Shown here: piece by piece, positions 28,263 through 62,736 of the stretch
Position numbering within the stretch: position 1 is the stretch's first letter
Layout of the letters: each line of letters begins with the position of its first letter
Origin: Nemertoderma westbladi
Taxonomy: Eukaryota; Animalia; Xenacoelomorpha
NCBI GenBank assembly: GCA_032718475.1
Contig: JAUCBJ010008784.1
Coordinates: 1-64,000, forward strand
Length of the DNA: 64,000 bases
Direction of reading: 5' to 3'
Program-made: the position numbers and the translations under genes
The notes under the pieces: model-generated
Told to the model about the DNA's origin: nothing
Database searches by the model: none
The model's input: only the letters and a program-made list of their open reading frames with translations

Positions 28263-29000
28263 CTACCCTAGGACCCCTTGTCCTGCCTGTTTGTGCAGCA
28301 GGTCTACCAAGGTCTCCACCGAGGTCTTCCACTCCCCAACCCGCGCACTCATCTCCCCAATCTGTTCCCTGCTCAGCACTCTCGGCTGCACCCACGAGAT
28401 GTAAACCTTCCCGTCTACCTGATCGATAGACCCCTTAACTAAACCGAGAGACAGCGCGCGCATAACCAGTATCTCTACGTGGTCTTCGGCGACCTGGCAG
28501 ACAGCGGAGATCTCGGAGAAAGTGAGAACGCGATGGTTAGCGGGGCGAGTGAAGGACAGCTCTACGAGGGCCATCAGACGAATCTTCTGGGTTAGAAACA
28601 CAGAGGATTTCTCTAGATCGATCTGTTTCGATAAAGAGGAATGAAGTTCGTTGAATCGTCGAATGTTCCCCGAGTTAAACGCGAAGAGAAGATCAACGAG
28701 CCACTGGTTCTCCGTTGCGACGAGCGACTCGAGGATCGGATGCGCTAAGAGTTCCCCGAAGTTGTAGATGCCCCGGGCGAGGAGGGCCGCGAGTCCCACG
28801 TGGAACGCGCGTTCCTTGCGTTCCTCTGTTCCGATCTCGGCGAGGTCCTTGCAGCCCAGGTACCGCAGCGAGTCGGTGTAGAACCCCGCGTGGTCCCCCG
28901 TCATCTTCGAGTAGGTGCTGCTCGTATCGTAGAAGTGCGCGTGGATCGGTGTCAGTCCATCCTCGTTGTCTAGGATACTTCGCGCCTCCGCAATGTGTTC
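28263..29000 (-). CDS. PSMD13: 26S proteasome regulatory subunit Rpn9, exon 2
   Basis: LRYLGC, IYNFGELLAHPIL, VEILVMRALSLGLVKGSIDQV, WVQPRVL (PCI domain); AG acceptor at 29001-29002, in frame. Confidence 0.95.
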   Translation of the reverse strand, partial: EHIAEARSILDNEDGLTPIHAHFYDTSSTYSKMTGDHAGFYTDSLRYLGCKDLAEIGTEERKERAFHVGLAALLARGIYNFGELLAHPILESLVATENQWLVDLLFAFNSGNIRRFNELHSSLSKQIDLEKSSVFLTQKIRLMALVELSFTRPANHRVLTFSEISAVCQVAEDHVEILVMRALSLGLVKGSIDQVDGKVYISWVQPRVLSREQIGEMSARVGEWKTSVETLVDLLHKQAGQGVLG

Positions 29001-29561
29001 CTAAGTGGGATTATATAATAATTATTAAATTGTTTTAATTACACAATTATTTTAAAAGACAGTCATATTTCCATACCTGACATATTTTTATTTATTTATT
29101 ATGTAACGGATATGAAAGACTTTTGGTGTCTATACTGATATACAAATAATATGACAACGCCATATCGTTCCCTGAACTTTTATATAAAACCAAACAATCA
29201 GTAATTTAAGCCTAAGGTACGCTGGTATGCTGCTGATGTAGCATAATAATAAAATAATAGGAAGACTAATCAAAATATATAAAATATGATTGGGCTCTTC
29301 CTATCAAACTGTACTATGATATTAATAATAATATCATAACAGCTTAACAATGGTAAACCCAATCGAATAAATCTATATTTTAAAATTACCAGACAGCCAG
29401 CTGCCCAGATTGGTCAGTTGGACATAGTTAATTCTAATTGAGAAGTACATCTATTATTATTCTTAAAATTTTTGTACATAAACAGCCAGTGGAATCCGGA
29501 CCAAAATTAATTTTTTCATTTATTCATATAAATATCATATAAAGGGCGTTCAGAACAGAAC

Positions 29562-32500: not shown

Positions 32501-33965
32501 CACCCTGATAGGCACTGCGGAACTGTGTACTGGCATTGATTGATCCACCCTGATATGCACTGCGGAACTGTGTACTGGCATCGATTGATCCACCCTGATA
32601 GGCACTGCGGAACTGTGTACTGGCATTGATTGATCCACCCTGATAGGTACTGCGGAACTGTGTACTGGCATCGATTGATCCACCCTGATAGGCACTGCGG
32701 AACTGTGTACTGGCATTGATTGATCCACCCTGATATGCACTGCGGAACTGTGTACTGGCATCGATTGATCCACCCTGATAGGCACTGCGGAACTGTGTAC
32801 TGGCATTGATTGATCCACCCTGATAGGTACTGCGGAACTGTGTACTGGCATTGATTGATCCACCCTGATAGGTACTGCGGAACTGTGTACTGGCATCGAT
32901 TGGTCCACCCTGATAGGCACTGCGGAACTGTGTACTGGCATTGATTGATCCACCCTGATATGCACTGCGGAACTGTGTACTGGCATCGATTGATCCACCC
33001 TGATAGGCACTGCGGAACTGTGTACTGGCATTGATTGATCCACCCTGATAGGCACTGAGGAACTGTGTACTGGCATTGATTGATCCACCCTGATAGGCAC
33101 TGCGGAACTGTGTACTGGCATTGATTGATCCACCCTGATAGGCAGTGCGGAACTGTGTACTGGCATTGATTGATCCACCCTGATAGGCAGTGCGGAACTG
33201 TGTACTGGCATTGATTGATCCACCCTGATAGGCAGTGCGGAACTGTGTACTGGCATTGATTGATCCACCCTGATAGGCACTGCGGAACTGTGTACTGGCA
33301 TTGATTGATCCACCCTGATAGGCACTGCGGAACTGTGTACTGGCATTGATTGATCCACCCTGATAGGCACTGCGGAACTGTGTACTGGCATTGATTGATC
33401 CACCCTGATAGGCAGTGCGGAACTGTGTACTGGCATTGATTGATCCACCCTGATAGGCAGTGCGGAACTGTGTACTGGCATTGATTGATCCACCCTGATA
33501 GGCAGTGCGGAACTGTGTACTGGCATTGATTGATCCACCCTGATAGGCACTGCGGAACTGTGTACTGGCATTGATTGATCCACCCTGATAGGCACTGCGG
33601 AACTGTGTACTGGCATTGATTGATCCACCCTGATAGGCAGTGCGGAACTGTGTACTGGCATTGATTGATCCACCCTGATAGGCAGTGCGGAACTGTGTAC
33701 TGGCATTGATTGATCCACCCTGATAGGCAGTGCGGAACTGTGTACTGGCATTGATTGATCCACCCTGATAGGCAGTGCGGAACTGTGTACTGGCATTGAT
33801 TGATCCACCCTGATAGGCACTGCGGAACTGTGTACTGGCATTGATTGATCCACCCTGATAGGCACTGCGGAACTGTGTACTGGCATTGATTGATCCACCC
33901 TGATAGGCACTGCGGAACTGTGTACTGGCATTGATTGATCCACCCTGATAGGCACTGCGGAACTG
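29562..33965. repeat. Intronic minisatellite, 45-bp unit, ~98 copies
   Basis: Unit ttgattgatccaccctgataggcactgcggaactgtgtactggca, highly homogeneous. Confidence 0.98.
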
Positions 33966-34649
33966 ATCGTAGCGACTCATTTCACGTCCTTTATCAACTT
34001 GATTCGTTTTTTTTTTCAATTTTTTTCATTCCAGAATAATCCCATAATATTGTGTGATTGTTAAAACTTTATCCATGAATTCGTAATTGTATTACAATCA
34101 TTACCAAAAATTATTACCGAAAATACGTTACAAATCATTACAATTTGTAATGGATTGTAACGCATTTTTCGTAATAATTAGTTTAATGGATGTTTATTGA
34201 ATTGAATACAAAATATTTCCGAATATAATAAAAGGAATTACAATAATTATAAATATTGTAATAATTGTATTTCATTCACATTATTACATATTATATTTAA
34301 TTAATTTATCTCTAATAGAACTGCTAACTGCTAGAATTACTTTCTGCTTTCGACTATAAAATTGTCCACAAGCTAGCGTTACGTTACTACTAGGGGGGAA
34401 GGGGGGGGGGGGGGGGGTCAAAAACACATGTTACTATGTGTTACAAGGGGTGGGGGGGGGGGGGTGGGTCAAAAAATGACGTTACGTAATATGTGAACAG
34501 CCCCTTACTGCCTTAAAAAAGTTACGTAATCAAATGTGAAACCGGAATGTAATTCAGTAATTAATTAACATAGACAGATATTATTATTATTATGTTAATA
34601 AACCGTTGGCCGACTGGCCGTAGGTATTTATTTAGACCTATTGACTTAC

Positions 34650-39183: not shown

Positions 39184-39316
39184 AGCATGGTGGCCATCCC
39201 ATGACTTTCTTGAGACGCATCTTAAAGGACACTGGTCTTGAAAATGCTGATGATCTAGCAAATGTCATGGGTGATAGGGTGTTGTGGCGGCGCAATTTTG
39301 TCAACAAGCCGGCATA
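39184..39316 (+). mobile_element. RTE-clade LINE 3' fragment, left part (target of the Maverick insertion; continues at 62007-62100)
   Basis: Matches 62962-63093; the sequence resumes after the Maverick TSD. Confidence 0.88.
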
Positions 39317-39721
39317 AGTAGTAGAAGAAGAATGGTCCTTGTCGTAAGTCCTCCCTAGCTTGGGCTATGGGCATACCACTCGGAGGGCTATTAAAAATGC
39401 CAAATTTTGATGCGCGCGCCATATGTCACCATCGGCAGTTGCCATCAACCAATCGTAGCGTAGCTTAACCTCGCGATGCCCGCCTTACTCGACTGATTGA
39501 CTAACCCTACGGTTATTCACCTTTTCGCCACGTTACCACCACTGCCACGTTACCACCACCACTGTATACTGTATATGGTGACGACGTGGCCATCTACACG
39601 CATCACGCATATATTATATTATATCGATTGCCAACTCCTCGACTGCTGTCGCCAAATCAACAAACCAACCAGTATGATACATGAAATTCCACCACGTTCC
39701 AGCTACGCGTATACGAGCATT
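39317..39721 (+). repeat. Maverick left TIR
   Basis: Reverse complement of 61623-62006 with a few substitutions and indels. Confidence 0.95.
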
Positions 39722-39799: not shown

Positions 39800-42700
39800 C
39801 AATCGATACATAAGCTGTAGGCCTGCCGACAATAAGACCAAGAAAGATACCGGTACTAGGCCTATACAGTTTTTATCCCTGAGTCAGACTACAGCCAGAC
39901 AGCACAAATGTTCCCGCTCTTAATCTCCACAGTTTTCATCGTTCTGGGCCGTTTCGTTGTGGCAGAACCATCCGATCCGCGGGGTAACCCTGCAACCCAC
40001 CCAATACCCGTATTGGACTGGTTTGCGGAACACCCTGTCGCTACCGTTTAGAACTGCCGCGCCGAATCGACGGAGATGTGGTCGACGAGTGGATTTAGCC
40101 TCTACTGCTCTCGTCGGGGAAGAAGATCTTGGGTCTCCTCTCCACGATCTAGAGGCCTAATCGCTAAACTCTGTCTACTGCGTCTCTGGCTGGGGATATT
40201 GAGACCAACCCAGGACCCAGCAGGACGCGGGCCCCGAAGATCAACTGTCCCGTCTGTCAACGAGGAACAAACTCTCGGAGTAAGATCGTCCAATGCGAGA
40301 GTTGTGACACATTTGTACATTTAAAATGTTACCGTAGGAAACGCAGTAATTTATTCTCCACCAGAACAGCAGAAACAATCTTGAACCAAGTTTTCTCTGC
40401 AATAGCTGTATTTTTACCGAACTTCCCTTTCATGATACAATTTTAGAATCAGAAACCGACGATTCATTTCTCACATCGCCTCTGCAAACTCCAAGTGATG
40501 CTGAGAGTGAAACTTTTAATTTTTTTAAGAAAAAAGGTCTGCATTTTTTGCACTTAAACGCACGATCTCTGCTTCCAAAACTTTCCGAAATTCGTATTTT
40601 AATCAATAAATCCAACCCAGCAGTTTTAACAATCTCTGAAACTTGGCTCGATGATAGTGTTTCTGATATGGAGAAATTTATATTGATAATTACGTAGTTT
40701 TACGTAAGGATAGGGACAGACACGGTGGTGGTGTCTGTACTTACATTCGATGTGATTTAGCTTTTAATCGTAGGGAAGATTTAGAGACTTGTGACGAAGT
40801 TTTACTGGTGGAACTTTTACTTCCTAAAACTAAACCTATTTTAATCGGTACCTTATATCGGCCCCCTAAACAATCAGATTTTTTGCAAAATTTTGAAAAT
40901 ACAATTTTATGTAATCTTAGGTCAGACTGTGAAATATATTTCTTAGGTGATTTTAATATCTGTTACCATCACAAAGCATCCCCCATCTGTAAACAGTACC
41001 AAAGTATTTTAAATTTGTTTGGTTTAAAACAAATTATTCGAGATTCTACCAGAATAACCAGTAAAACTTCTACTTTACTAGATCACATCCTTTGTAATAA
41101 TACCGATATTATTTCTCAATCTGGGGTTTTACCTATAGGTCTAAGCGATCATTTTATAGTTTTTTGCACAAGAAAGACACAAAAATCTTTTTTCGGGGAT
41201 CATAAAACAGTAACAGTTAGGTCTATGAAAAATTACAGCAAGGAACGCTTTTTAAGTTTGTTAGTTAATTCTGACTGGGAACCCTGTTTTAAGGCCGCTG
41301 ACATTAACCTTGCGTACACTGTTTTTAAAGATATATTTTTAAAGGCACTTAATACTGTAGCACCAATTAAAGAAATTAGTCTTAAACAACGCACTGAGCC
41401 CTGGATGACCTCGGGTATTCTTAGTAATATCAGAGAAAGAGATAACTATTTGTATAAATTTAGGAAATACCGTGTTTTAGCTGATTATAATAATTACTGC
41501 AAATATAGAAACCTTGTCCAACGGGAAATAAAAAAAGCTAAATCTGAATATTTGTACAACAAAATAAGTGAGAATAAAGATAATCCTAAAAGTCTATGGT
41601 CTACCCTAAAATCGTTAGGTTATAAAAACCTTAAATCTAAATCGAATATTGTTCTGCAAGATAACGGTGAGCTGATTCATGATCATACTCTAGTTAGTAA
41701 TTTATTTAATAATTATTTTACTAATGTTGCCTCTAATTTAGTTAAGAAATTACCGTTATCAAGTAATAAATATAGTATAGGGTCTGAAACTCTAAATAAT
41801 TTTTATTTAGAAAAGTTACAAAATTCAGAAAAGTTATTTTTAAAACCCGTTTCTGAGGATTTCGTTTTTAAAAATCTACTTAGCCTATCAGCCTCAAAAA
41901 GTACCGGTCTAGATCTAATACCTGCCCGTTTTCTTAAGGATGGTGCTGAAGTACTTAAAGTGCCTATTACTTTTATTATTAATTACTCTATCGTAGATAA
42001 TGTAGTACCAGACGAACTGAAATTAGCTAAGGTTGTTCCTCTGTATAAAAAGAATAGTAAAGTAGAACCCTGTAATTACAGACCTGTTAGTATCTTAAGT
42101 ATTATATCTAAAATTCTAGAACGTTCTGTTTTTCTACAGCTGGAGGCACATCTTAGTAGGCTAAATCTGATCTATGAACTTCAGTCCGGTTTTCGTAAAT
42201 CATATTCTACAGACACCTGCCTTATTAACTTAACTGATACAATTAGATGTAATAACGCAAAGGGTTTATATACTGGTATGGTAATGTTGGACCTACAAAA
42301 GGCTTTCGATACTGTAGATCACGAAATTCTGCTTGGTAAGTTAGGCCTGATGGGTGTAGGTTCTATAGACTGGTTCAAGTCCTACCTGTCAGACAGAGGT
42401 CAAACTGTAGTCATTAGCAAATCGCTGTCTACTGTACAAGAGATTACCTGTGGTGTACCGCAAGGTAGTATATTAGGTCCTCTGCTTTTTGTATGCTATG
42501 TAAATGATATGATAAGTAGTATAGATCCCGATTTTAAACTCATTTTATATGCCGACGACAGTGCTCTTATTTTCTCTCATAAAGATCCTATCCATATTTC
42601 CCAAAAGTTAAGTGCAGTTCTAGAATCCTGTAATGAGTGGTTGGTTGATAATAAGCTATCCATTCACTACGGTAAAACTGAAAGTATTTTGTTTGGTTCC

Positions 42701-43748
42701 AAAAGAAAGTTAAAGAAGGTAACTAAGTTTGAAGTCACTAGTAATGGACATAAGATTGAAAATAAAAAGGAAGTTAAATATTTAGGCGCCACATTGGATA
42801 ACTGCTTATCAGGAGAAAGTACAGTGAAAAATATTTTCTCGAAAGTTAACAGTAGGCTTAGGTTTCTATACAGAAATAAAAATAGTTTGAACACTGACTC
42901 CCGCAAGTTACTTTGCTCTTCTTTAATACAATGTCACATGGACTATGCATGCACTTCTTGGTATGAAGGCTTAACCAAACAGCTTAAATGTAAATTACAA
43001 GTAGCTCAGAATAAAGTAGTACGATTTATTAAAGACTACAAACCTAGGCACCACCTAACTCCAGATGACTTTTCTGAATCTGGACTACTTAACTTAGATA
43101 GTAGAGTTAAGCAGCTACGCCTTAACCATGTGCATAAAGTGTATAATGGTGAATGTCCCAATTACCTAAAACAAAAATTCAACAGAGTTCGCGATACACA
43201 CTCTTACAGTACCAGAGCTAGTGCTTCAAACTTCTACCTCCCGAATTGTAAATCCTTTGAATCTGATACTTTCTTTTTTAACGGCATAAAAAATTGGAAC
43301 GCTCTGCCTAATGAAATTAAAAACCTAGATAATCAACATTCTTTTAAATCTGCAGTTAAATCTCACCTCCGAGTGCAATGTAAAAATAGGTACAATAGTC
43401 ATACAGTAAGTTATTAGTTTATTAATTATTTACTATTTATACTGTAATTACGTTTTATAATAAATTGTTCTGTACATTACATCTTTATCGTTGAGTCGGA
43501 CATTGTCACGCTCTCGGTAAAGTTGTACATGTACATAGTGTAATTACGTTTTATATTGGTTTTAGGTTAGCGTAGTGTAATATTGTATTTGTAACCAAGT
43601 AACATAAAGGACCCCCTTGGAAATAAGCTGCAAAGCTTTAGGGGTAATCCTATATGTTATGTTGGACAATACCTTTATACCGGTACATTGTTTGGTGTAT
43701 TTGTTATTGTTTTTACATAATGTATAAATAAATCTATCTATAATCAAT
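39800..43748 (+). mobile_element. CR1/L2-group (Crack/Daphne-like) LINE nested in the Maverick; boundaries approximate
   Basis: Leader-2A-PHD-APE-RT organisation; 3' UTR stem-loop GGACCCCCTTGGAAATAAG...GGGGTAATCC; AATAAA + ATCT/AATC tail. Confidence 0.88.
39908..43417 (+). pseudogene. LINE polyprotein: leader, 2A peptide, PHD finger, APE endonuclease, RT (frameshifts in the 5' part; 40808-43417 open)
   Basis: GDIETNPGP; CPVC..CESC..HLKC..CNSC; HLNARSL, ISETWL, YRPP, GDFN, SDH; [23 protein letters not shown]. Confidence 0.92.
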
Positions 43749-44535: not shown

Positions 44536-44985
44536 ATGGATATTTTAAATGAAAAATGTCCAGTTTGCTATTCTAAGTTATTGCAACATCGAGATTATTA
44601 TAAATGTGAAAATAAACATGCAACTTGCGTACAATGTATTGTACAATATTCCGAAATGAATAATTATTGTTCTAAAATTTGTCCTATTTGTCGCGCACCC
44701 ATATCTAAGTTTAATATAAAGTTGGCAAGATACCAACCCTATTATTGGAAAGAGCTTCGCAATATAACTTATATTTCTGCGGAAAGTAATGATCCGGGAG
44801 ATTTATTTACAATATTGGAGAATATTTTTTATAGAAATGTAGTACGACGGTGTTGCTACTATATTCCTTATTTTTTTAGCAGCGAACATAAAAAAATCAT
44901 TAGCGCAAAATTCTCGGGAAGTGATTTCCAAACCGCCGATGTTTCCTATCATTATTTCGCGTATAAAGACGCTCACCATGCTTGA
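44536..44985 (+). CDS. Maverick RING-finger protein (putative E3 ligase)
   Basis: CPVC-x12-C-x2-KHATCVQC-x14-CPICR. Confidence 0.8.
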   Translation: MDILNEKCPVCYSKLLQHRDYYKCENKHATCVQCIVQYSEMNNYCSKICPICRAPISKFNIKLARYQPYYWKELRNITYISAESNDPGDLFTILENIFYRNVVRRCCYYIPYFFSSEHKKIISAKFSGSDFQTADVSYHYFAYKDAHHA

Positions 44986-45197: not shown

Positions 45198-45872
45198 ATG
45201 GCTGACTTTAATTCAGGTCCATATAATTTAAACTTTCAAATGGGAACGAGTATGATAATTTCTGGCCCATCTGGTTCTGGAAAGTCAACATTTGTTAGCA
45301 ATTTAATTAAACACAAGAATGGTTGTTTCAACGAAGCCCCCTTGCGAGTATTGTATTGTTACGGGAGCAATCCCCCAACTATTCCTGGTATTACTCACCT
45401 TTAAAAAGGTTTGCCAGAAAATATAGATAGTTTAGTGAATAGTCGAGATTTATTAATTATAGATGATTTATTAACAGAAACTGAGTCCAGTACAGCTTTA
45501 ACTGTATTGTTTACTAAGGTAGCTCATCATTCCAATATATTTATTTGTTTTATAACGCAAAACATGTTTTACGGTGGGAAGCATAACCGCACAAGATCAA
45601 TTAATAGCCATACTTTAGTATTAATGAAAAATCCGCGAGACAGTTTATCGGTTTTAAATTTCGCGAAGCAGATGTTACCAGGGCAGACCAAATTTTTAGT
45701 AGATTCCTATCAAGATGCGACTATTGAACCATTTTCACATTTCTTAATTGATTTACGACAGGAAACACCCGAACATTTAAGATTTAGATCGGATATATTT
45801 CGTAATCATAATTGTTACATTAAAAATTACATTGACTATAAACGTAGTGAAAATAATAATAATAATAAATAA
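45198..45872 (+). pseudogene. A32/FtsK-like DNA packaging ATPase (one in-frame stop at 45402)
   Basis: Walker A GPSGSGKST, Walker B LLIIDD, HH..I...ITQN, KNPRD. Confidence 0.92.
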
Positions 45873-46517: not shown

Positions 46518-47592
46518 ATGCCACGCAAGATGAAACCGATTTTAAACCGAAGCTTAGACAAAAAACTGTTAAGAATTTATTTAGATCCTTCATCCCCTGC
46601 GGGATTTGCAAGTATCGCAAAATTAGCAAAAGCTGCAAACATCAAACCAGCTCAAGCCCAGAAATGGTTGAGCGGGCAAAATACATACTCCCTTCACGCA
46701 CCACGTAGACATCATTATCCAACATCTAAAATATTTACGGGAGGCTTAAAAGATATATATATGATAGATCTGGTGGATATGCAGCAATATAAATCGCAAA
46801 ATAATAATTATAACTATATATTAACATGTATTGATGCCTTTAGCTGGCTTGCTTTTGCCTATGGTATGAAAACAAAAAAGGGTATTGATATTATTAGTAT
46901 ATTGCAAAAAATATTCCAGAAAGGAAAACCATACAGAATCGCAACCGATCAAGGGTCTGAGTTTCTAAATAAATCTGTAAGGAAATATTTAGATACTATT
47001 GGTATAAAGTATTATGTAATGTATTCTGTGAATAAGGCGGCTATTGTCGAGAGATTCAATAGAACATTAAAAACAAGGATGTTCAAAATTTTCACACAAC
47101 GGGGAAATAATGTTTGGATAAAAATTTTACCGAAGCTCATTTATGCTTATAATAGGTCATATCATAGGACAAAAAAATGACACCCATTGAAGTTAATAAA
47201 TTTAATGAAACTGAATTAATGATAGATTATATGGGAAATATAGACAGATTAATCACAAGAAAATAAAATTTACAGTATGATTATCTATCGCTCGTACTGC
47301 TTTTGCTAAAGGCTATCGAGAACAATGGACACGTGAATTATTTATTATTCATCGGGTCAGATTGGATAGAGTACCAGCGGTAATGTTCGATATTAAGGAC
47401 AGCGCTGGAGCTATAATAAATGGCTCATTTTATTCATACGAACTCCAAAAGGTCCACCCGAATAGTAATATTTATCTCCCGATTGATAAAAATATTGGCA
47501 AACTTAAAGAACGTGTACGCAATGGGAAAAAAGAATATTTAGTCCGATTCATCGGATCCAAGAAACAGTCGTGTGTACAGCATATTCAATAA
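46518..47592 (+). pseudogene. Retroviral-like (rve) integrase with C-terminal chromodomain-like part; frameshifted after 47170
   Basis: YSLH, IDLVDM, IDAFS, TDQGSEF, KAAIVERFNRTLK, FAKGY..QWT.E, GSFYSYELQ, KEYLVRFIG. Confidence 0.93.
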
Positions 47593-47871: not shown

Positions 47872-48747
47872 ATGGCTGTAGATACATATATCACTCTACT
47901 TTCAGATAGCTCATTAAACACTTACCCCAATAATAACCCTAGCGAGTTTACTGTTGATTTAGCCGAAGAATTATATATTGGTCCAAACGCTAAAATTGGA
48001 CTCGCGGAGATACAATACCAAGCAACATACAGTAATATTACTCTGCAAACTCAAATCTCGCTGTCAATCGGGGTAGATGCAAAAGATGCCAAATTATACA
48101 GTTTATTTCCTGGTATGCATAGCTCTATTCAAGTCATTATTGATGATATAAATAAACTGTTTAATTCTGAAGCGAAATATAGAGATTTCGAATTCATTTT
48201 TAATACAAATAATTCTAGAATTAAATTTAAATTTCCTAAAAAGTTGAAAAAAATACAATTAAGTCTACGCGGTGATTTAATTCAAATTCTAAGCTTAAAA
48301 CCGTTATTGGATCAGAATCATCCGGATATTCCGAATTGGGATATATACAGTACCACTACAGTGGATGAATTAAGCAATATAGAACAGCCGATATTAATTT
48401 TAAATTATAGTGGACCAAAAATTTCGGAAATTGGGATTTCAGATTTTCCAGCTCCCACGAATATTACTCGTAATAAAGATACTATCTTCATATATACAGA
48501 TATTATTAAGAGCTCATTTGTTGGCGACGCTTTAGCTCCGCTCTTAAGAACCTGTCCTTTAACACAATTAAATCGAAAATATATTAATCACGAATACGAG
48601 AGCATTTGCTATTACCCGTTGTTGAATAAAAAACTAAAAACAATATTAATTACTTTACGTGACGGCCAAGGTGAATTAATTAATTTCAATGGTGGTCGCA
48701 CTGTTATAACACTTAAGTTAATACGCGGTGGTGGTGGTGATGGATGA
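47872..48747 (+). CDS. Minor capsid protein (penton) 1
   Basis: YITLLSDSS..YPNNNPSEF; IGLAEI; IFIYTDII..SFVGD..APLLR; I.ITLRD..GELINF..G...ITL. Confidence 0.88.
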   Translation: MAVDTYITLLSDSSLNTYPNNNPSEFTVDLAEELYIGPNAKIGLAEIQYQATYSNITLQTQISLSIGVDAKDAKLYSLFPGMHSSIQVIIDDINKLFNSEAKYRDFEFIFNTNNSRIKFKFPKKLKKIQLSLRGDLIQILSLKPLLDQNHPDIPNWDIYSTTTVDELSNIEQPILILNYSGPKISEIGISDFPAPTNITRNKDTIFIYTDIIKSSFVGDALAPLLRTCPLTQLNRKYINHEYESICYYPLLNKKLKTILITLRDGQGELINFNGGRTVITLKLIRGGGGDG

Positions 48748-49583
48748 GCTCTACGTTAGACTACCAAGTAACTCCTGTCCAATTGATTTTCCTCGTAATA
48801 CTGCTAGTAATTATCAGATCAATTTCCATGGCGCCTTACCTATAAATCCAAACGAAAACTGGGTGGTAGGTATAAAAAGTATATTTTACTTAGCCACATT
48901 GCCGTCCATGTATAACAATGTAGAGAATGTTATTTTATTAAAAAAAGGGAAAAAAAATTTTGAGGATACACTTCCATCCGGTTTGTTCTACAGTATCAAT
49001 GACATTATAGATTATTTTAACACTGGGGTGTTGAAAGATAAATTACAAATAGTTGAAATACTCAGCAAAATAGGTTGCAATTTATTTTAGGGAAAACTGT
49101 ACGAGAGTTATTTATAGGTCAACAATTAGCCTATTATTTTGGAATTACTGAAAATAATCTCGGCGCGAATTTAAATCCAAATTTTAAAATTATTTTGAAG
49201 ACGAAAAATAATATAAAGGGTTATTTAATAAAGGTTATCGGAAATGGAGAAAAGCTTACCAGATGGTATTTTTATGCCCTCATCCACCCAATTCTATTCC
49301 AGAACCTAAATCGAACATGTACGTGACTACTAATATAATTGAAAATGAATATATTAATGACTTTGGTTTAGCCTTACTTTGTCGTGTCGCGATACCTGAT
49401 GACGTGAAATATGGTAGTGTAATAAATAAAGAATTTGTCAAGGATACAATTCATTATATCCCTGTAAAAAAATCATATAAGATAACATACATTCATATTG
49501 AAATAACAGACAAAGAAGGAAAAGATTTTAATTTTGAATACGGAACAACTTCAATTACCTTACACTTTAAAAAAATAAATTAA
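48740..49583 (+). pseudogene. Minor capsid protein (penton) 2, frameshifted
   Basis: YVRLPSNS...FPRNTASNY; WVVGI; MYVTTNII...INDF..LL; YIPV; IHIEITD..GKDFNF.YG...ITLHF. Confidence 0.85.
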
Positions 49584-50150: not shown

Positions 50151-51403
50151 ATGTCAATTATTAAGGAATTAGATTTATTTTCTACACAGCCAATACAGAC
50201 TGAATTTAAAGCAAAGCATTATGAAACAATTTACCCAGTATCCAATCTCAGAAGTGAGTCTAGGGAAGTCACGTTCCTTGTACCAAGATCCAATGAATTC
50301 TATACGAAACTGCAAGATGCGTTATTAATTACAAAATGTACTGTACGGTGGGATAGACGACTTGAAAACTCCCATATTTATATGTTGAATTACCCCGCTG
50401 GAACTATGTGGAGTGATATTAAAATAGACCTTAATGAGAAGCAGGTTGAAAATAGTAATAACCATTATTTCTACAAGTCATACTTATCCAATTTATTATT
50501 TACAACATACGAAACTAAAAATGGGCTACTGGGGGCGGGTGGCTTTCATCAGCCTTTATCCGAACACGGAAATGAAATTGATCCTGGTGCGCATCCCATT
50601 GGCAATGCCTTTAGTAAACAAATGCAATTTGTAAGTGGATTGACAATTGATTTTGATACTGAAACTAAAATAATACAACCCGGGTATGATTTAAGAATGT
50701 ATTTTAGAAAAGTATCAAATTCGTTTATTTTTAAAATCACTCCAAATGCAAACGCTGTGACAAATCTTCGGTTAGAATTAGATGAAGTAAAGATCCTAAT
50801 CCCTAGAATGGAGGTTAATCCCGTAATAGAAAGCTTAAAGGTTTAGAGAGTTACGATATTGAATATCAATTCCAAAAAAAGGAGGTTACAACATTTACTA
50901 TTCCCGCACAAACCACAAATTACACCCAAACAAACATATTTGATGGTAAAAAACCCAAATTAGTTATTATCGGTTTTATAACAAATAATGCATATTCGGG
51001 AGAATTAATTAGTAACCCCTTGAAATTTGAACATTTTAACCTTAGACGCGCGGAACTGATTGTAGACGGTCTTCCAGTAGGTGGTGTAATATACGAGCCT
51101 AATTTTACAGATGGAACATATATTTTTGAGTATACTCAATTAATGAAAAACATTAATACATATATTAACGGTTATGGAGGTAATAATATAGACCATGAAA
51201 CCTACTTAGGTAATTGCCCACTCATATCCTGGGACCTAACCGCCGACGGCTATGTTAGAGATCCGCAACCATCGATATATACTAACGGCCAATTAAAATT
51301 AAGATTTGCTGAACCGTTGGTTGAGACCATAAATGTAATCGTTTTTAATATTTATGATCAATCATTAAGTTTAAATAGCAGGAAAGAAATACATATCGAT
51401 TAA
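50151..51403 (+). pseudogene. Major capsid protein (double jelly-roll), frameshift near 50835
   Basis: ELDLF...PIQT; YFYKSYL; PKLVIIGF...AYSG...NPLKFEHFN; WDLT. Confidence 0.9.
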
Positions 51404-51405
51404 GT

Positions 51406-51858
51406 ATGTTATCTACAGAGGACCTTGATATGTTTCCAGTGGGTGGTCACTATTTGGGAGCGTTTCCATCTAACAAATTACCTAAATTAGATAATAATAA
51501 GCGGAGAGATTATGGGTTAATAGTAAACACCGATAAACAGCATCTACCCGGGGTTCATTGGATCGCTATATATATACGAGATAATGAGGCTGAATTATTT
51601 AATTCATTCGGACCAAAATATCCAAACAGATGTATCGAAAAATGGCTTGAGAAAAATTCAGCAAGATGGCGTACTACCCGGAAACAATTTCAAGACCCCA
51701 GGAGGACCACATGTGGATTATACTGTCTTTATTACTTGGTAAATCGAATTCATACAAACTATCCAATGAGAGCGTTTACAAATAATGTGGAAATAAATGA
51801 AATAATATTATATAAATGGCTTGTTAATTATTATAAAATAAACCAACAAGCGTTGTAA
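51406..51858 (+). CDS. Adenain-like cysteine maturation protease
   Basis: IVNTD...GVHWIA; FNSFG; Q....TCGLYC. Confidence 0.92.
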   Translation: MLSTEDLDMFPVGGHYLGAFPSNKLPKLDNNKRRDYGLIVNTDKQHLPGVHWIAIYIRDNEAELFNSFGPKYPNRCIEKWLEKNSARWRTTRKQFQDPRRTTCGLYCLYYLVNRIHTNYPMRAFTNNVEINEIILYKWLVNYYKINQQAL

Positions 51859-51889: not shown

Positions 51890-52468
51890 ATGGATAATAT
51901 TATTTTTGTTGATTTTCAATATTATAAGATAGACAATAAGGAATATCCGGTAGTATTTAAAGAATTTGCTATATTCGATTCTAATTACACCAAAACTAAT
52001 GTAAAGACGTTTTTAATTAAAGGTCCACCTAATATTAAGTTATCAGCATTAGATGTAGCTCATGTAAACAATTTACGAGACATGACTTCGCATTTACCTT
52101 GGGATTACGGTGACATTTCGCAAGATGACTTTAAAAAATACATGAAGAGACATTTAAAATATAAAAAAAATATACATATATTTGGGTTGATGAAGCGGGC
52201 AATATTAGTTTCCCAACTTGATGTTCTCGCACCAAATTCGATGGAGAAATTGGGGATATATCGACTATATTACAATTATTTAACTCCATGTCGCTTCCAC
52301 GATCAATTTACTACTACTACAGTAGAAGATAAATGTAGTTTTCACAAAGATGGTGATAGCTGCTTGAATTACTGCTCAGCGAAAAGGATTGGAGGGTATG
52401 TAACGAAGCGTTTAACTGAAACTGATGATAAACAGAAAGAAATAACTGCGGTGAATGATGTACAGTAG
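51890..52468 (+). CDS. DEDD/DnaQ-like nuclease-fold protein
   Basis: IFVDFQ....VFKEFAI, HLPWDYGD, late C..H....C motif. Confidence 0.6.
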   Translation: MDNIIFVDFQYYKIDNKEYPVVFKEFAIFDSNYTKTNVKTFLIKGPPNIKLSALDVAHVNNLRDMTSHLPWDYGDISQDDFKKYMKRHLKYKKNIHIFGLMKRAILVSQLDVLAPNSMEKLGIYRLYYNYLTPCRFHDQFTTTTVEDKCSFHKDGDSCLNYCSAKRIGGYVTKRLTETDDKQKEITAVNDVQ

Positions 52469-53052: not shown

Positions 53053-53412
53053 CGGTTAACCTTTAGAACTTGCGGATAGGTAAGGTACACCTTCATTCGG
53101 TTAGGCATATAGGCCTAATGACTACTCCTCAACTGAAAGCTGACTAGCTCACGGACACAATAGGTGTGGTTAGGTACCAGTAGCGCTATTGGACCTATAA
53201 AATCCCCTCGCACTCTCTGTTACTAACTTTCAACATTCACTTTATGACAGTATGTTGTATGCTATACCGTTAACCTTTAGAACACACAGTCAGGAACCCC
53301 TTCATTCAACCAGTCAAGGCCCCACTCGCATACAATAGGTGTGGCTCGCGGTATACCTAACTAAGCCTATATAAAATCCGCCACATTCTCTGTTACTAAC
53401 ATTCACTCTATG
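53053..53412 (+). promoter_or_regulatory. Tandemly duplicated module with TATA box and Inr-like CATTCACT
   Basis: Two diverged copies (53053-53245, 53267-53412), each with TATAAAA followed by ctctgttactaac..cattcact. Confidence 0.35.
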
Positions 53413-53507
53413 TTGACGGGACTATATAAAACATAGTTAGTTTATTTATGTATTCGCTTTTTTTTAAATTAGATATAAAATAGGTTCGGCCTACTAAGTT
53501 TTATAAG

Positions 53508-53595: not shown

Positions 53596-54363
53596 TTATA
53601 TACCTATATGAGGTTCCCTCAGAGGTGTTTCCTCCTTTACCAGTACCTGTAAATGGTTGTTTGAGGAGTTTATAGGCCTAACTTCTACCGGTCTTTGCTG
53701 TAAATGGTTGTTTGAGGAGTTTATAGGCCTAACCTCTACCGGTCTTTGCATCGGTAGATCGAAGCGAAGCGTATTATCAACATCATTCTCCCAATTCTCC
53801 GAATTTTCACTAGAGCGTGAGCTTCCCGATATTTGAGGTTGTATCCTTATATTGAGGGTGAAATCTTTAGAAATTTCAACCTTTGTTGGTACTACTAGGA
53901 TCGGCATGCTGCATTGCAGCTGCATTTTTAAGAATGCTGTGCCGGCTTGTCAACAAAATTGCACCGCCACAACTCCCTATCACCCATGACATTTGCTAGA
54001 TCATCCGCATCTTTAAGGCCAGTGTCCTTTAAGATGCGTCTCAAGAATGTCATGGGCTGTCCACCATGCTTATTCACTCCATGAGGCTGCCAAAGTACAA
54101 GATTATGCACTGGCTGGTCCTCACGGCGAAAGCAATGTCCTGCAAAGCGGAGGCGATTTTGTTCTAGTGTCAACCTTTGTTGGTGATAAAGGTAGACCTA
54201 CTCCATATTCTACCGAAGTAAACCCGATCTCAAATTTTTGGTTCATATAACGCAACTCCATCTCAGCAATATTGGATGCTGAGAGATATGTTTCGTCGCT
54301 TGATTGCAAATCAATTTTGATACAACTTTTCAACCCTTGGTTATTAAAAAAGGCGAATGTCAT
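53596..54363 (-). pseudogene. Maverick hypothetical protein (~157 aa) split by an RTE insertion
   Basis: Removing the insert joins ...LSPTKV to EISKDF... in frame. Confidence 0.75.
53891..54169 (-). mobile_element. 5'-truncated RTE-clade LINE
   Basis: LRFAGHCFRR...DRELWR; TSD TCAACCTTTGTTGGT (53876-53890, 54170-54184); (TAG)n tail. Confidence 0.92.
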
Positions 54364-55039: not shown

Positions 55040-55621
55040 CTAATTATATTTTACATCAAAAACCCTCACACCAAACAATAATAAATTATTAACCAGTTTG
55101 TTGAATATAGGATAATATATATGAAATTTAAACGGGGAACACATTAATGTACATTTACCAGTGTAGAAGCAGCAAACAACAACAATATTATTTATTCTGA
55201 CTTTACAGTTATTGAATATTTCAGGCTCGTATGAAATTTCTAGTTTAACATTATCAAATATAACATAAAACCCGATATTGTTTATAAGTAACCTATAAAT
55301 TACAGTATCGATACTAAAAATATAAGTACACAAATTGATTGATTTAAAAATCAAATTAATGTTTGTTTTTTCGAATATATGCTTTTTCACTTTATTAAAA
55401 TTATATTTTCTACCGAGAATTGTTATTTGTCCATTTGTAAACATTAATATGGTTGCACCAAATACCTTATATATAAACTGATTAGGTTTGAGTACAATTT
55501 TACCATTCAATTGATTTTTTAATTCTTTTAAATTAAGTCCATAAATGATCTGCTTACAACTTATATTTTTATTTACTATTTGATAATTCATCATCAACAC
55601 CATCATCTTTTGGTTCTTCAT
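55040..55621 (-). CDS. Divergent TATA-binding-protein (TBP)-like protein
   Basis: Two TBP repeats: ATILMFTNGQITILG and SYEPEIF...VVVCCFYTGKCTL (cf. TBP TALIFSSGKMVCTG and SYEPELF...VLLIFVSGKVVLTG); core-only length. Confidence 0.72.
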   Translation of the reverse strand: MKNQKMMVLMMNYQIVNKNISCKQIIYGLNLKELKNQLNGKIVLKPNQFIYKVFGATILMFTNGQITILGRKYNFNKVKKHIFEKTNINLIFKSINLCTYIFSIDTVIYRLLINNIGFYVIFDNVKLEISYEPEIFNNCKVRINNIVVVCCFYTGKCTLMCSPFKFHIYYPIFNKLVNNLLLFGVRVFDVKYN

Positions 55622-58600
55622 AAATTGGTATATTTGATATTTTTATAGGTTTTTTGAGGTTTGTTTTATAGTGCCCCCAAGGAAGTGATTGATTTTTATT
55701 AACCCAATAAAGTTTATCATCAAAGCTACTGAGTGCAAATTTATTTTGCTTTAAGGTATAAATACGATGTAATTTAGATTGAAATCTGTGTATGTTTTTT
55801 TTTATTTCTTCATTTGAGTTATATGCTTTTAAATATTCTTCATGTGTAATATTCGTTTCCACAACAGCTCTTGTAATACCTTTTGCTCTACGAATATTTT
55901 TGTTATTCCATTCCAAAATTGAATATAATTTTGGTCTTAAAAATACTGCTTGTTTAATTTCACGTGAAGCTAGTTCATCTTTACAGTAATAAAGTCTCGA
56001 TTTATTTTTATCACTGTAGAGAGGGTGATCCTTAGGGTAATTGGATGTATCTAAAATATTATTTTTAATTAATGCTTTTAAAAAATTATTCTGCGATGTA
56101 TTATAGTAACATCCTATTAAAGAGTCCGTATCTGATGCAGCAATTTCAATACGGCAGTTTAATTCTTTCTTAATAGGTAGCAATTTATTGTAAAACAGCT
56201 CATACATATCCAATTTTGCCAAGTCCAACACAGTGCTACCAAAAAATATAGGCTTATCGAGAGTTACAGAGTCTTTCACTAATAAATGTCCCGATAATGT
56301 ATTATTGTATATTATAAATTGTTCGTGATTAATACGATTCACCAATTGGTCGCATTTATCATTGCTATTTGCGATACGAAAGTTACATCGATCTCTTATC
56401 TTTTCTATTGATTTGCCAAATAACGAATTATTGAGCAATTTCGCGACAGCTGTTTCAATGTAACTTTTTGCTAATCGCCTTTGATTAATATTAAAATCGA
56501 TGTAATTTTTAAATACAAATTCTTGTTGAAAAGAATATAATTTATGTAGTTTAGTAACAATTAATCCATGTTTTATATAAAATTTTAACAGTTTCAAATG
56601 TAAATGATAAAACTCTTTATCAAATTGCGTCAGCAAGAGTTTTGCTGTAGGCATCCTATATTTACGGGCGGTACTTCTTTGTATCGATAAGTTATTAAAT
56701 TGTTCCCTCATATAAGGCGAAAGCATTGATTCATTTATACTTAAATGCTCTGGAGCTAACGGTAATTGTAATGTTTGATCGTGAATAGCTTTGGGATAAT
56801 TTAAATCACATATTAAAAAATATCCAGTAGATCCATCAATGTCTAAATCTACCAAGTACTCGATTAGGTTTTCTGGAATTGCATTCTCTAAGTGTTTAAT
56901 ACTTACTTCTTTGAATTGTGAGGTGGGTAGTTTTTTACTTAAATTCCCAGAATATAAAGAGTTGAAATCAATATTAAAAATATGGCATTCTTCCTTAGTA
57001 GAATCATATGTACTTGTTCCTGGTATATTTGATTCTATATAATGCTTTCGACAAAATGAAACACCACCCCTAATTGATTTTTCAAAATCTCTATATGTCT
57101 GATAATCCTTTATTAATTCTATTTTACATTTATTATATTTTAGTGCGCAATCATAGGTAAATTACGCGATACTACAGTAAAAAACCGCTTCTAAATTGTA
57201 ATTTTGTTTACAAACATTCCTAAAATTCTCAAATATATCAGCAAGCAAACAAACATCGAGTTTTAAATAGGCTAAAAGATAATCTTTGAGATTCACACAG
57301 TCGAATTGTACCCATGATAATTCCGCAAACCTATAATCTTCAATTGTGCATGTTTTTTGACTTAAGTTACTAAAAAAATTATTTATAGACGGCAAACCAG
57401 TATCATTAAATTTATTTATATCTGTCAAGTACTCGTATGGAAATACTCCTTTCCGTTTAATTGTTAAGTTATTCAAGTTTGGATAAAAATATTTCATTTC
57501 TTGTAGAGTAATAGGTAAAATTGAGCTTATATCATGACTCGCTACATCCTTTGTTGAATACTCAAATAAATTACTTAAAGAAAAGCTTAAAAATTGATAT
57601 GTGTCTAAGAAACGTAACTCAATTTTCTTAGAAGTGTTTTGAATTGGGATAAATGCACTCAGTGAAATATATCGTTCTGTATTTCTCGGTATAACCTTTA
57701 TATCCCAATCTGTGTATTTCTTATCTCTAAATCCGGTTTGTAATATACAATGTATATCGTACTTGTTGGAATTGTGTCCGCAAAGTACATACAGGTATCG
57801 TTTCAATGATAAACTTCGGTTACAACTATTACAGGTTGCTGCAATATATTTACCTGTAATATGTGAATGATGTCTGTTTTTCCCTACATTATTATTTAAA
57901 GTAACATTACAATAGAAACAAAATTTTGCTTGTTCAAAATTTACAAAATCAATATTAGTAAATGACATAGTTTTATGAGTGTATATTTCTGACCAACAAC
58001 ATAATTCAGTTAAATCAGTATATAATGAATCTAAGAAATCTTGAATACAATTATTATTATTTGACTTTACGAATGTTTTCAAATGACATTTTGGAGCATC
58101 AAGTAATTCACTATTGGGAACAATTAAATAACTCACAGCATACGGTATATGCTCCTGTATAATTTGATTATTAACTGAAGGTTGTAAGATACATTCTATA
58201 TCAATGTAGGTGACAAACAATGGGGATAAGGTTCTATCTAAATTTGTAAAACTAATGTGTGTTCTTTTTTTATTAGGTAGTTTCTCTCGTTGACTTCTTC
58301 CTTGGTAGCAGGAGAGACGGTGTCGATGAAGAACTTCCGCTCGAAAAAAATGAGTCAAACACCTTTCACAATATTTCCTATTGCTGATATGAAGAGCTCT
58401 CGTATTCAGCAATCGATTCAAGTTAGTTATGCAAACATAATGATTCAGTTTAGATACATTGTTATTTTTTACTACAAGTAATATATTTAATAACTGTTTA
58501 TCAGGTGTAATTTTACTAAACGGAGGTTGTCTTAATATAGATACAGGGGTGTGTTTGTTGTCGTTATTCCAACATAGTAAATTAATTATATATTTTGAAT

Positions 58601-59630
58601 TTTGTTTTTCAAAAAGTTTAATCGCTAACTGCCACTCTGTTGGATAATCATTTTTTCCGTTGTCAAAAATGAAATGACTCATATAATTTTTGTACGATGA
58701 AGTAAGCTGTTTGTTGTTTTTCACTTTGCTACCAAATTTTGCGGTTATAATAGCCCATTTGAAACAGTCATTATCAACCGATTGTACATTTATAACACAT
58801 AGTTTACTCGATAGAACCTTAGGTAATTCCATATATCCATGCCCCTTATATAGTAACGACCTACACTTAGATTCAGCTAATTTAATTTCAACCCTTAATA
58901 AAGATTTAATACGCCACCCTGAACCACGTGTGTTAAAGATGGCTATTTTTTGTAATATATTTTCCAGCACATACTCAAACCATGTGTCAAAACTTTGTGA
59001 TGAATCTACAGTATTAATAGCACCACCGGAAGAATTAAAATAAAAGGTTTCCAATTGCTCACCTTCTGAAAAATGTGATCTGTACATTAATACATTTAGA
59101 CCTAACCACAGTCTAAGAACATTCATTTCTTTCAATCTATCTAATATTAACTGAAGAATATTACCTCGAATTTGCATTACTGCTGTTTCTACATCGGGAT
59201 AATCTCTAGAAGTTGGGAGGTCGTGGACATAAATTTCAAGACGATTATCGTGAGCTTCTTGTTCCCGCGTAAAAATTGTTGCGCATGTACCAAGAGCCAC
59301 CCTTAATTTTTTTCTAGATAATATATTTTTTTTATGTTGCGGAGATTTACGCTTTCTTGTGTAGTAACATTTCAAGTGACAGTCGTGTCGTAAATAATTC
59401 TCACATGTATACTCTTTATTACAGGTAGAACAAGTCAATTGATAGGTACGGAACTCCATTTCTTTATAACCAGTAGTTGATTCATGTCGTTTACAAATTT
59501 CGCTGGATGAAGTCACGACATGACACTTAAAACAAGAATAACTTTCAAAATGTGACCGTAGGTGGCGTAAATAATTATGTCTAGTTACATTCATATGACA
59601 GAATGAACAACATATTGTTATTTTATCCAT
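55569..59630 (-). pseudogene. Protein-primed family B DNA polymerase (1354 codons, single in-frame stop at 57162-57164)
   Basis: Exo motifs YIDIE, HNSNKYD, YLKLDV; KGVFPYEY; SIRGG; DFNSLY; KLLNNSLFGK; SDTDS; PKLY; KGI. Confidence 0.96.
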
Positions 59631-59823: not shown

Positions 59824-60838
59824 TTACATGTTAGGATAATAATCTGGTTTCCATGGAGAATTAGTAACTAGATCTACTGGAGCTGGGTTAACAGCAACTT
59901 TCTGTTTCTTTGCAGGTGATTCGTTGGTAAATTTACTCGATGATCTTGGCTTCCGAGGTAATATTTCAGGAAAGACCTGTTGCGGTTGAGAGCAACTCTC
60001 TTCAACATCCGGATTAGGTGATGTGATCTCTACGATACTACGAATGCTTTAGGTTTATCCAAAAGGACAAAACCGTCTACATTGGCTTCAATAAGAGAAA
60101 CGCCATCCATAGCCTCTTTGAGAAAACTAATATGGGCTTTATCATTCAAGTAATGCAACTCAATAGAATTTCCGCCGGCTCCTACTTCAGTAGAATTATC
60201 GGTGTTGGTGATAATAATTTTTTTATTATTGGTTTTAATCATTTTGAGACGGTCTGATAATTGAATGATATTTTTATCAAAAAGATGCTTGTCTGGTTCA
60301 TCAATTTGAGTGTCCCACTCTCGCAACAAAACGGTTAGTTCCTGATTTGACAAATTGAAACCCGTATAATAGTTAAAACCAACACTGTTACAAATCCAAT
60401 AAACTCTGGATTTGATAATTCAATGTAGAATTGATCTCTAATAATCTCTAGCGGTGGAGAGAGAAATTGCAATAATTTCCCTCTGTATTGAATTAGAACT
60501 TCAGTAAAAGCTTTGTTGAGGACTTTACATTTGCCTTGTTTCTGAACGTAAACATCACCCGATGTGGGGTTGATAGAAATATTCAAATTTCCCCGTGCAA
60601 AACGAAGAGTGGGATATATCCTACCTGGTATAATTGCTGGTCTGGATTGATGTTGGTTGTTGGTTGTTGTTTCTAGAATGTCTAGCAAATAGCGGGTATC
60701 TTGATGGGAAAAACAAATTGATTCGTTGTCCTCCTGAGATTCCACAATAAAATACTTGCTGTGAACGGCGGTACAAGTATATTTATTGTAAGTAAATTTC
60801 CAGCTATTTGTTGCTCCGGTTTTTTGCGTTAAGGCCAT
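59824..60838 (-). pseudogene. Maverick hypothetical protein (~335 codons, two frameshifts) with NLS-like PAKKQKV
   Basis: Overlapping ORFs 60335-60838 and 60030-60353 plus a downstream open frame to TAA at 59824. Confidence 0.55.
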
Positions 60839-60926
60839 AATAATAAATACGAAAAATATTACAAGTGATAAATTTTAAACCGTATCGCTGTAATAAATTG
60901 ACACCATATTTCTCACTCTAAAATTA

Positions 60927-61138
60927 CGTTTGGATGTAAGGGAGAATTTATAGTATCGATGAATATCATGATTTATATGTTTCACCAATGATCACATTTT
61001 CTTTGGTATTCATGATACGGAAATTGCATCGGTCCTGTATTTTCTCTATCGTTTTACCAAAGAAAAATGTGATCAATTGGTGAAACGTATAAATCATGAT
61101 ATTCATCGATACTAAAAATTCTCCCACACATCCAAACG
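60927..61138. repeat. Imperfect palindrome, ~82-bp arms, ~46-bp spacer
   Basis: 60927-61008 is the reverse complement of 61055-61138. Confidence 0.9.
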
Positions 61139-61622
61139 AGATTTCCTTTGAGTTACATAATTACGTTTAGAAACCCAATGTGGGAATCAGTATCATTTAT
61201 TCGAGTGTTTCCGACCAATGAATATACAACGAGTAAGATAATGTAGAAATTATTAAGGAAATAACACAATTTCAGAGTGAGAACAAAAAATTAGATATGG
61301 TATCAATATATTACCATGAAGATTACAAGTGATGAATTTTAACAAAAACATTCAGTTATATATAAATTTTGATACGTGTGGATGTGGCATAATCAACGTA
61401 GAAGAGATGGGGTGTGGCATAATCGACGAATGAGAAAAGAGATGGGTTGCAATGTGGATGAATGGTTGCGTGGATAGGAAATACGTGAAAGAATATGAAT
61501 CATTGGGTTGTGCGTAATAATAATCAATAATTATAATAAAAACGCACAGTATAATGTTAGTAGTAGCCTTTCAATATGGCACAGATGCTGAGGGATCGGT
61601 TAGGATGAGTAACTACTATGGA

Positions 61623-62006
61623 AATGCTCGTATACGTGTAGTTGACGCGTGGCGGAATTTCATGTATCATACTGGTTGGTTGGTTTGGCGACAGCAGTCG
61701 TGGAGTTGGCAATCGATATAATATAATATATGCGTGATGCGTGTAGATGGCCACGTCGTCACCATATACAGTATACAGTGGTGGTGGTAACGTGGCGAAA
61801 AGGTGAATAACCGTAGGGTTAGTCAATCAGACGAGTAAGGCGGGCATCGCGAGGTTAGGCTACACTACGATTGGTTGATGGCAACTGCCGATGGTGACAT
61901 ATGGCGCGCGCATCGAAATTTGGCATTTTTAATAGCCCTCCGAGTGGTATGCCCATAGCCCAAGCTAGGGAGGACTTACGACAAGGACCATTCTTCTTCT
62001 ACTACT
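61623..62006 (-). repeat. Maverick right TIR
   Basis: Reverse complement of the left TIR. Confidence 0.95.
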
Positions 62007-62736
62007 GGCATAGCATTCTTAATATATATATGTAATATATATATAATGCAACTGCAATGCAGCATGCCTATCGTAATAGCAGTAATAGTAGTACTGTAGT
62101 GGCTCCGCCACTGGTTACTGAAATACTTTAAGGTACCTTTGGGGTAATTTATTGAATAAGATCAACAACTGGCAAATAAACCGTATTGTTTAAGAGCAAT
62201 ATAATAGTGTAATTTTCAGCATGTGTTGTCATTTTTGTCTCACATTACTTCTTATTTGTCGACATAATATTATAATATTAATTAAGAATCCAAAGTTATT
62301 TTCATTTAATTTTTGTTACAGGGTTTAACTAATTTGAAAGCTCACCAACCCATGGTGTGGTGTGGGTTGCAATGGTACAGTATGTTCTAGGATAACGAAA
62401 AAATGAAGAAAGCTGCTGAGCTTAAGATTTAAGAAGACGGTTGAACCGAGCCCGAATTTCACGTCAGGCAAACGAGACTTACCGCTTCGCCGGTACTTCA
62501 CTTTCCGTTCACTAGTACCCAAGGTATGGTCCATGGTAATTTCCTGCACATTTAAGGCCCGTGTTCTTACCTTGAATCAATCCTCGCACCCACGCGTCCA
62601 CGCGCCTTTCACGATTTCAGGTACTCCTACACTGCTCGCTTCCTCTCCACTCCGATTTTCGCGTTTTTAGAATATTCGGAGACGGTTCTATTTAAACACT
62701 TATTACACCATTATTGCATTATTATCCATTATTGCA

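Follow-up and report, generated by a model that had tools for sequence, protein, structure and literature searches.

Why should a mobile element in which no RNA polymerase gene was found encode a TATA-binding protein (TBP)? The question is raised by a 64,000-nucleotide stretch of Nemertoderma westbladi DNA (assembly GCA_032718475.1, contig JAUCBJ010008784.1, positions 1-64,000, forward strand; hereafter, the window), in which a Polinton carries an open reading frame (ORF) that a first-pass annotation had read as a TBP-like gene coupled to that of the DNA polymerase. The protein addresses a larger question as well, namely whether animal Polintons are true viruses that run a timed particle-making phase of their own.

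The TBP Gene

The gene and the sequence elements next to it are as follows.

55040..55621 (-): intact TBP-like ORF; its first ATG gives 193 aa, and Met10/11, the probable start, 183-184 aa
55641..55670 (-): two canonical TATAAAA boxes in the 3' end of the polymerase gene, 56 and 79 nt ahead of Met11

As first described, the ORF is intact, intronless and AT-rich: it is ATG-initiated and uninterrupted, needs no intron, has 23.9% GC and lacks an N-terminal extension. The probability of 193 open codons arising by chance at this composition is ~2e-9. The product matches Pfam PF00352 in two stretches (E=6.9e-6, 26.3 bits, against a curated cut-off of 22.9), and the motifs that had been assigned to the two TBP repeats (LNLKEL, ATILMFTNGQITILG, FKSIN, SYEPEIF and VCCFYTGKCTL) are all found. 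In an Atlas search, 29 of 30 matches lay in TBP clusters, with a recognition value below the Atlas threshold. Among PDB sequences, the protein gave only three chance matches to S15; as a query it matched none of 129 candidates and none of 1.84 billion representatives, and the metagenome and viral contigs searched with it held no related locus. The ORF at 55040-55621 is a real gene encoding a genuine two-repeat TBP homologue.

Its start had been placed on the stop codon of the protein-primed DNA polymerase B (pPolB). The overlap with the end of pPolB stands, but the position on the stop codon does not: the first TBP ATG falls within the final 53 nt of pPolB, whose stop codon is at 55569-55571. 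It can be seen in the sequence that the run of ATG codons at the 5' end of the TBP ORF arises incidentally from the Asp-rich tail of the polymerase. Translation probably begins at Met10/Met11 instead: nearly all other copies have a different codon in place of Met6, residues 1-10 have pLDDT values below 50, and relatives begin about five residues ahead of an Asn-x-Asn strand. The two TATAAAA boxes at 55641..55670 are candidates for the promoter of the TBP gene itself.

The Polinton and Its Surroundings

The Polinton spans 39317-62006 (22.7 kb) and is bounded by terminal inverted repeats of ~400 nt. Its flanks correspond to a host repeat of which the window contains another, uninterrupted copy. 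Its features, apart from those above, are listed here.

39317..39721 (+): left terminal inverted repeat, starting AGTAGTAG, with the target-site duplication GGCATA before it (39311-39316)
41225..43417 (+): LINE-type reverse transcriptase ORF (PF00078)
44536..44985 (+): RING-finger ORF, profile match under the curated cut-offs
45198..45872 (+): packaging ATPase, with an in-frame stop at 45402-45404
46518..47589 (+): retroviral-type integrase in two pieces (PF00665)
47872..49583 (+): two putative minor capsid genes, the second in pieces, labelled from position and weak similarity to a related locus, L025
49585..50148 (+): basic ORF, which we take to be pX/core-like
50151..51403 (+): putative major capsid gene in two frames
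51406..51858 (+): adenain-type maturation protease (PF00770)
51890..52468 (+): 192-aa ORF of no known family
53596..54363 (-): ORF downstream of TBP, split by a ~290-bp retroposon fragment with a flanking 15-nt duplication
55569..59630 (-): pPolB, with one in-frame stop at 57162-57164
60335..60838 (-): 167-aa ORF of no known family, first of the minus-strand block
61623..62006 (-): right terminal inverted repeat, with GGCATA after it (62007-62012)

Relatives of pPolB at ~40% identity are annotated PF03175/PF02945. The capsid ORFs have no Pfam match and show weak tblastn similarity to the genes that stand in the same order in L025. The reverse transcriptase ORF is probably a later insertion, and the copy as a whole is decayed, with pPolB, ATPase, integrase and capsid genes broken. 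Neither TFIIB nor RNA polymerase families were detected among the Polinton ORFs scanned with Pfam, in agreement with the earlier statement that the element has no RNA polymerase gene. The 167-aa ORF, checked as a possible partner of TBP, matched unnamed clusters only. At 60921-61144 there is a region with a 69-nt inverted repeat, a minus frame of which resembles a pPolB piece of a related element (similar to 56323-56367).

Elsewhere in the window, a 4.4-kb array at 29516-33980 contains ~98 copies of a 45-bp unit (96% matches) and is open in two minus-strand frames of 1471 and 1476 aa, one of which has a DUF7888 match and a weak alphavirus E1 match. Three host-type genes each appear as one long ORF, unusually for intron-rich animal genes.

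19658-23179: RPAP1
25104-27239: SMUBP-2/IGHMBP2 helicase
28263-28904: proteasome Rpn9

Relatives and Gene Order

A search via pPolB yielded 43 related loci. One of these, L009, is an intact Polinton with unbroken polymerase, ATPase and integrase genes and a 169-aa TBP (Pfam E=2e-15), which is 28% identical to the window TBP over 127 aa. Used as a query, the L009 TBP returned ~87 clusters of TBP-like proteins, mostly 150-190 aa in length. Three of the 87 are on contigs equal in size to those of close pPolB relatives (45383, 33920 and 28807 nt), and the contig of one member of the L009 cluster has the size of an ATPase contig (6846); these equal sizes suggest that TBP may be linked to pPolB or ATPase in those relatives. 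Among the fetched pPolB loci, most of them short, one of 43 has a TBP match. TBP is an accessory gene of Polintons.

Other genes in these loci merit mention. L009 also carries KilA-N and parvovirus-type phospholipase A2 (PLA2) genes (11783-14128). Another pPolB locus (L013, 4778-6849) has, beside the polymerase, a gene of the Bcl-2 family and a tandem gene for PC4 (transcriptional coactivator p15); this PC4 is another homologue of a host transcription factor in a Polinton-like element.

The first-pass annotation had proposed that TBP is coupled to pPolB, with synteny in other animals as the check. As a conserved trait, the coupling fails. TBP lies directly behind pPolB in none of the 25 relatives with at least 700 nt downstream (33 of the 43 loci were counted, and 10, in which the match falls short of the polymerase C terminus, were omitted), and the L009 TBP gene is directly ahead of the ATPase gene, 5.5 kb from pPolB. 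The adjacency in the window is therefore particular to this lineage.

In a tree of 43 sequences, a subset of the 87, the window TBP is on a long branch joining the outgroup (support 23/56); this branch has 4.55 changes per column, and the composition of the sequence is biased. A profile of the mini-TBP family gives the window TBP 38.5 bits, as compared with 74.9 for a viral (Nucleocytoviricota) TBP of canonical type from another locus (L044) and 12.6 for the best shuffle. That canonical-type protein is the weakest match to the window TBP among 42 sequences. The window TBP resembles the mini-TBP family of Polintons; its long, unplaced branch and the higher profile score of the L044 protein speak against plain membership, as do the lost residues described below.

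Fold and Key Residues

An AlphaFold2 model of the window TBP from 78 aligned sequences has a pLDDT of 71 and a pTM of 0.60, and a prediction from the single sequence has a pLDDT of 33. When the model was compared with the PDB by Foldseek, every listed row with E<=0.001 was a TBP entry; in VIA-align the best 38 rows were all TBP (best Z 9.2 over 158 residues, rmsd 5.9), and the first non-TBP entry had a Z of 6.0. These matches support the TBP fold that had been proposed. Superposition on TBP gives rmsd values of 5-9 Å and a TM of ~0.4, and residues 106-118 of the model are of low confidence, which together leave the geometry of an intact saddle unsure in the model.

The residues expected to intercalate into DNA are in part retained. 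With the yeast TBP numbering of these sites, which we assume in part, Phe61, Phe136 and Phe152 are kept, and the first of the four sites has no clear Phe. There, the first stirrup is shortened, and a short Pro-x-Gln turn (Pro46/Asn47 region) replaces the Phe site, as is common to the mini-TBP family; Pro46 is present in 74/74 relatives and Gln48 in 72/75, and the window TBP shares both. Asn17-x-Asn19 likewise aligns with the Asn-x-Asn first strand of the group, and Gly64, Gly70 and Gly155 are kept. Lost, on the other hand, are residues that hardly vary in the family, namely the Arg at 67 (77/77), Gln98-Ser99, Pro137 and Asn150, all at positions that we take to face DNA in TBP–DNA structures. 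Gln65 appears private to this copy among the copies compared.

Both C-terminal stirrup glutamates of the YEPE motif noted at the outset, Glu132 and Glu134, are present, each also found in 75/77 relatives, and the commonest variant at codon 132 in other copies is still acidic. In the account of viral TBPs drawn on here, binding of TFIIB/Brf is assigned to these glutamates, which most viral TBPs have lost, relying instead on a TFIIB of their own (PMC7221094).

Selection in Other Copies

Other copies of the Polinton are known as contigs of four public runs, from two organisms, that cover the element. In the two deepest runs, the depth of the TBP region is about that of pPolB (depth giving no copy number); TBP therefore belongs to the Polinton family and is no one-off insertion. 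One run, which may be of RNA, covers the whole element. There are 33 variants listed in the TBP ORF, none of them a nonsense change; by codon position, 20 fall at the third, 8 at the first and 5 at the second. Outside the overlap with the polymerase, 14 are synonymous and 16 non-synonymous, corresponding to a pN/pS of 0.27-0.41 (p=0.0006-0.013 over three transition weights), a rough value because codons with multiple hits were classed base by base. Well-supported indels are absent from the ORF and located just past its stop codon, and the alignment of a diverged subfamily ends at 55040, exactly at that stop codon. Some low-depth contigs have gaps within the ORF. The variants support purifying selection on the TBP gene in the other copies, and with the depths they point, as first suggested, to a gene that is part of the Polinton family.

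We set aside one idea about the intact ORF in this decayed copy, that of domestication by the host, since a 582-nt gene may escape a few breaks by chance. Alternatively, a once-functional mini-TBP could be decaying in this lineage as a passenger. A branch of 4.55 changes per column with biased composition, the loss of residues invariant in the family, the decay of this Polinton copy and the existence of low-depth contigs with ORF gaps would all be natural on such an account; it fits poorly, however, with the low pN/pS, with the excess of third-position variants and lack of nonsense changes, and with a TBP depth equal to that of pPolB in the two deepest runs. We consider it improbable.

Promoters and the Search for a Late Box

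The promoter regions divide by gene class. TATA[AT]A[AT] occurs 10-150 nt before 7/8 non-virion genes, pPolB and TBP included (2.6 expected, p=0.001), and before 0/8 virion/integration genes (2.9 expected from composition, p=0.006), where the spacing window, consensus, start codons and gene classes were all chosen after seeing the sequence. The split is supportive, not conclusive.

In L009, a second box can be recognized. CATAAAC occurs 12 times, always on the coding strand, versus 3.35 expected, and 0/200 shuffles reach 12. Eight of the 11 occurrences in the gene block are 5-125 nt before a start (p=1e-4). The genes that the box precedes include those for the ATPase, the integrase, a PLA2-like protein and minor capsid proteins; pPolB and TBP are not among them. 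The result survives, for this one element, a class-wide test of 1000 patterns (0/400 nulls). L025 has one CATAAAC, and its available sequence has no TBP match.

The window Polinton contains CATAAAC only once. A de novo motif search there did no better than in random windows, and the best xATAxx pattern had a class-wide p=0.16, so that no shared late box is left after correction. Several candidates were discarded individually: GCAAGATG and AGCTCAT are located inside coding regions; TACWGTA is also common in the host flank; and YATACA, which ranks first among 16 patterns (p=0.006 each for strand and position), is not significant class-wide, is also frequent and strand-skewed in the flank, and has spacings of 29-139 nt. 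The densities of TACWGTA are 0.84 per kb in the flank (1-39316) and 1.3 per kb in the Polinton. A separate observation concerns the central non-coding gap, where three TATAAAA-type boxes occur at 53194-53430 (+) with no ORF downstream on that strand. Two of the three precede a similar 33-nt sequence, and they are possibly promoters of non-coding RNA.

It had been suggested that the protein either redirects host Pol II/III to viral promoters or binds AT-rich origins. The promoter patterns, both the TATA split and the CATAAAC of L009, fit the former, for Pol II; a late box in the window, which would complete it, did not emerge. The latter finds no counterpart in the terminal repeat, which is 46% GC and has the TATA consensus on neither strand. 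The same composition counts against a broader role in replication, in which the saddle would bend DNA at the terminal repeat or aid initiation by pPolB. Host factors that bend DNA serve at the origins of adenoviruses, and the TBP gene overlaps the 3' end of pPolB in the same strand block, both of which lend this role some appeal. But the arrangement does not recur in any of the 25 relatives, the L009 gene precedes ATPase instead, and a replication factor would have no need of the TFIIB glutamates. Such a role thus seems unlikely.

A more serious competitor is that the protein reads no specific box and acts as a decoy or modulator, binding host TFIIB/Brf or regulators of TBP and thereby dampening host transcription or boosting Polinton genes indirectly. 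This could explain why the stirrup glutamates are kept while many family-typical residues of the DNA face have changed, and why no late box was found in the window Polinton. It would not explain the retention of three intercalating Phe residues together with Gly64, Gly70 and Gly155, the virion genes without canonical TATA, which ask for another reader, or the clear CATAAAC box of the relative L009. We regard it as possible but rather doubtful.

A Proposed Model for Late Transcription

We favor a different reading, in which a stripped-down Polinton TBP, made early, steers host TFIIB and Pol II to TATA-less late promoters; we put its probability at roughly 0.55. Events would proceed in the following order. 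First, host TBP would transcribe the replication block, the TBP gene included, from canonical TATA promoters. Second, the viral TBP would consequently be made early, the timing being suggested by the canonical TATA promoter of its own gene. Third, it would replace host TBP at the TATA-less packaging, capsid and integrase promoters, to which it is presumed to bind. Fourth, its conserved acidic stirrup would contact host TFIIB and in this way recruit RNA polymerase II. Finally, late virion and integrase genes would be activated.

This late-transcription model is weaker for the divergent window TBP than for L009. A wider version would hold that many Polintons use a TBP of ~170-185 aa as a one-protein early-to-late switch that reads a lineage-specific non-TATA box, displaces host TBP and docks host TFIIB, with the window Polinton as an extreme case whose DNA-reading face has been rebuilt. 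Taken jointly, we would give these propositions even odds.

If true, no viral late-transcription system smaller than this one-protein switch would be known, and the switch would be direct evidence for a helper-independent, timed nuclear cycle of animal Polintons. In any case, TBP and the TATA-less virion genes offer a direct handle on the question: the protein is small, and the residues and promoter fragments of interest can be named. Elements of the L009 type are better suited to such tests, as the window copy is in decay and yielded no late box. More generally, the mini-TBPs form a natural series of changed DNA faces with an unchanged TFIIB dock, which is useful for understanding TBP specificity and for the design of orthogonal promoters.

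Comparison with Known Systems

Cellular TBP (PF00352; PDB 1ais, 1ytb and 1cdw) shares with the window protein the two-repeat fold, three of the four intercalating Phe residues and a C-terminal YEPExF stirrup with both TFIIB-binding glutamates. The window TBP differs in being only 12-21% identical in structural alignments, in its shorter first stirrup without a clear first Phe, in the lack of an N-terminal extension, and in being carried on a mobile element. That element is like other Polintons/Mavericks (adintoviruses) in its AG-starting terminal inverted repeats, its 6-bp target duplication, and its pPolB, integrase, ATPase, protease and capsid-like genes, several of them broken here. It is unlike them in TBP, an accessory present in 1/43 of the fetched, mostly short, pPolB loci.

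Among viral proteins, the nearest structural matches to the window TBP are the stand-alone TBPs of Nucleocytoviricota, which usually encode their own RNA polymerase. Viral TBPs are known from these giant viruses, and in the account cited above they differ from the window TBP in usually being accompanied by a TFIIB of the virus and in having mostly lost the stirrup glutamates (PMC7221094).

A TBP-like gene has already been placed in a mid-size virus or element with a Polinton-type polymerase: "TBP" is one of the labels on a map that shows MELD viruses whose PolB is adintovirus-like (Starrett et al. 2021, PMC8502044, Fig. 5 legend). The gene appears there just as a label, in a section devoted to non-animal datasets, and the text of that paper, as far as drawn on here, gives no analysis of family, residues, promoters or function; "TBP" is absent from the supplement text searched. 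Our literature search for a Polinton TBP returned this legend alone and, in the sources it covered, nothing that describes the family or its promoters. The first-pass annotation had called this its best candidate for an undescribed system, which is accurate for the family and its promoters, as far as these sources extend, but not for the presence of the gene.

A precedent is provided by the late TBP mimics of beta- and gammaherpesviruses (KSHV ORF24, EBV BcRF1 and HCMV UL87) and their TATT promoters (PMC12529657). As described in the parts of that source used here, these are viral TBP-fold proteins proposed to read non-canonical late promoters with host Pol II, early promoters being conventional (PMC12529657). 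Foldseek matches of the window model to BcRF1 and UL87 are weak (E 0.06-0.12). Of the herpesvirus-type promoter logic, the split between canonical and TATA-less genes is seen in the window Polinton and a shared late box only in L009. The machinery is different. ORF24, by the same source, is a large protein that binds directly to Pol II, functions as part of a complex of six proteins and, according to modelling, is not compatible with TFIIB (PMC12529657). Among the Polinton ORFs scanned with Pfam, the families of such a complex and a Pol II-binding N-terminal domain are absent, and the window TBP is by contrast shorter than 200 aa, stands alone and has kept its TFIIB stirrup.
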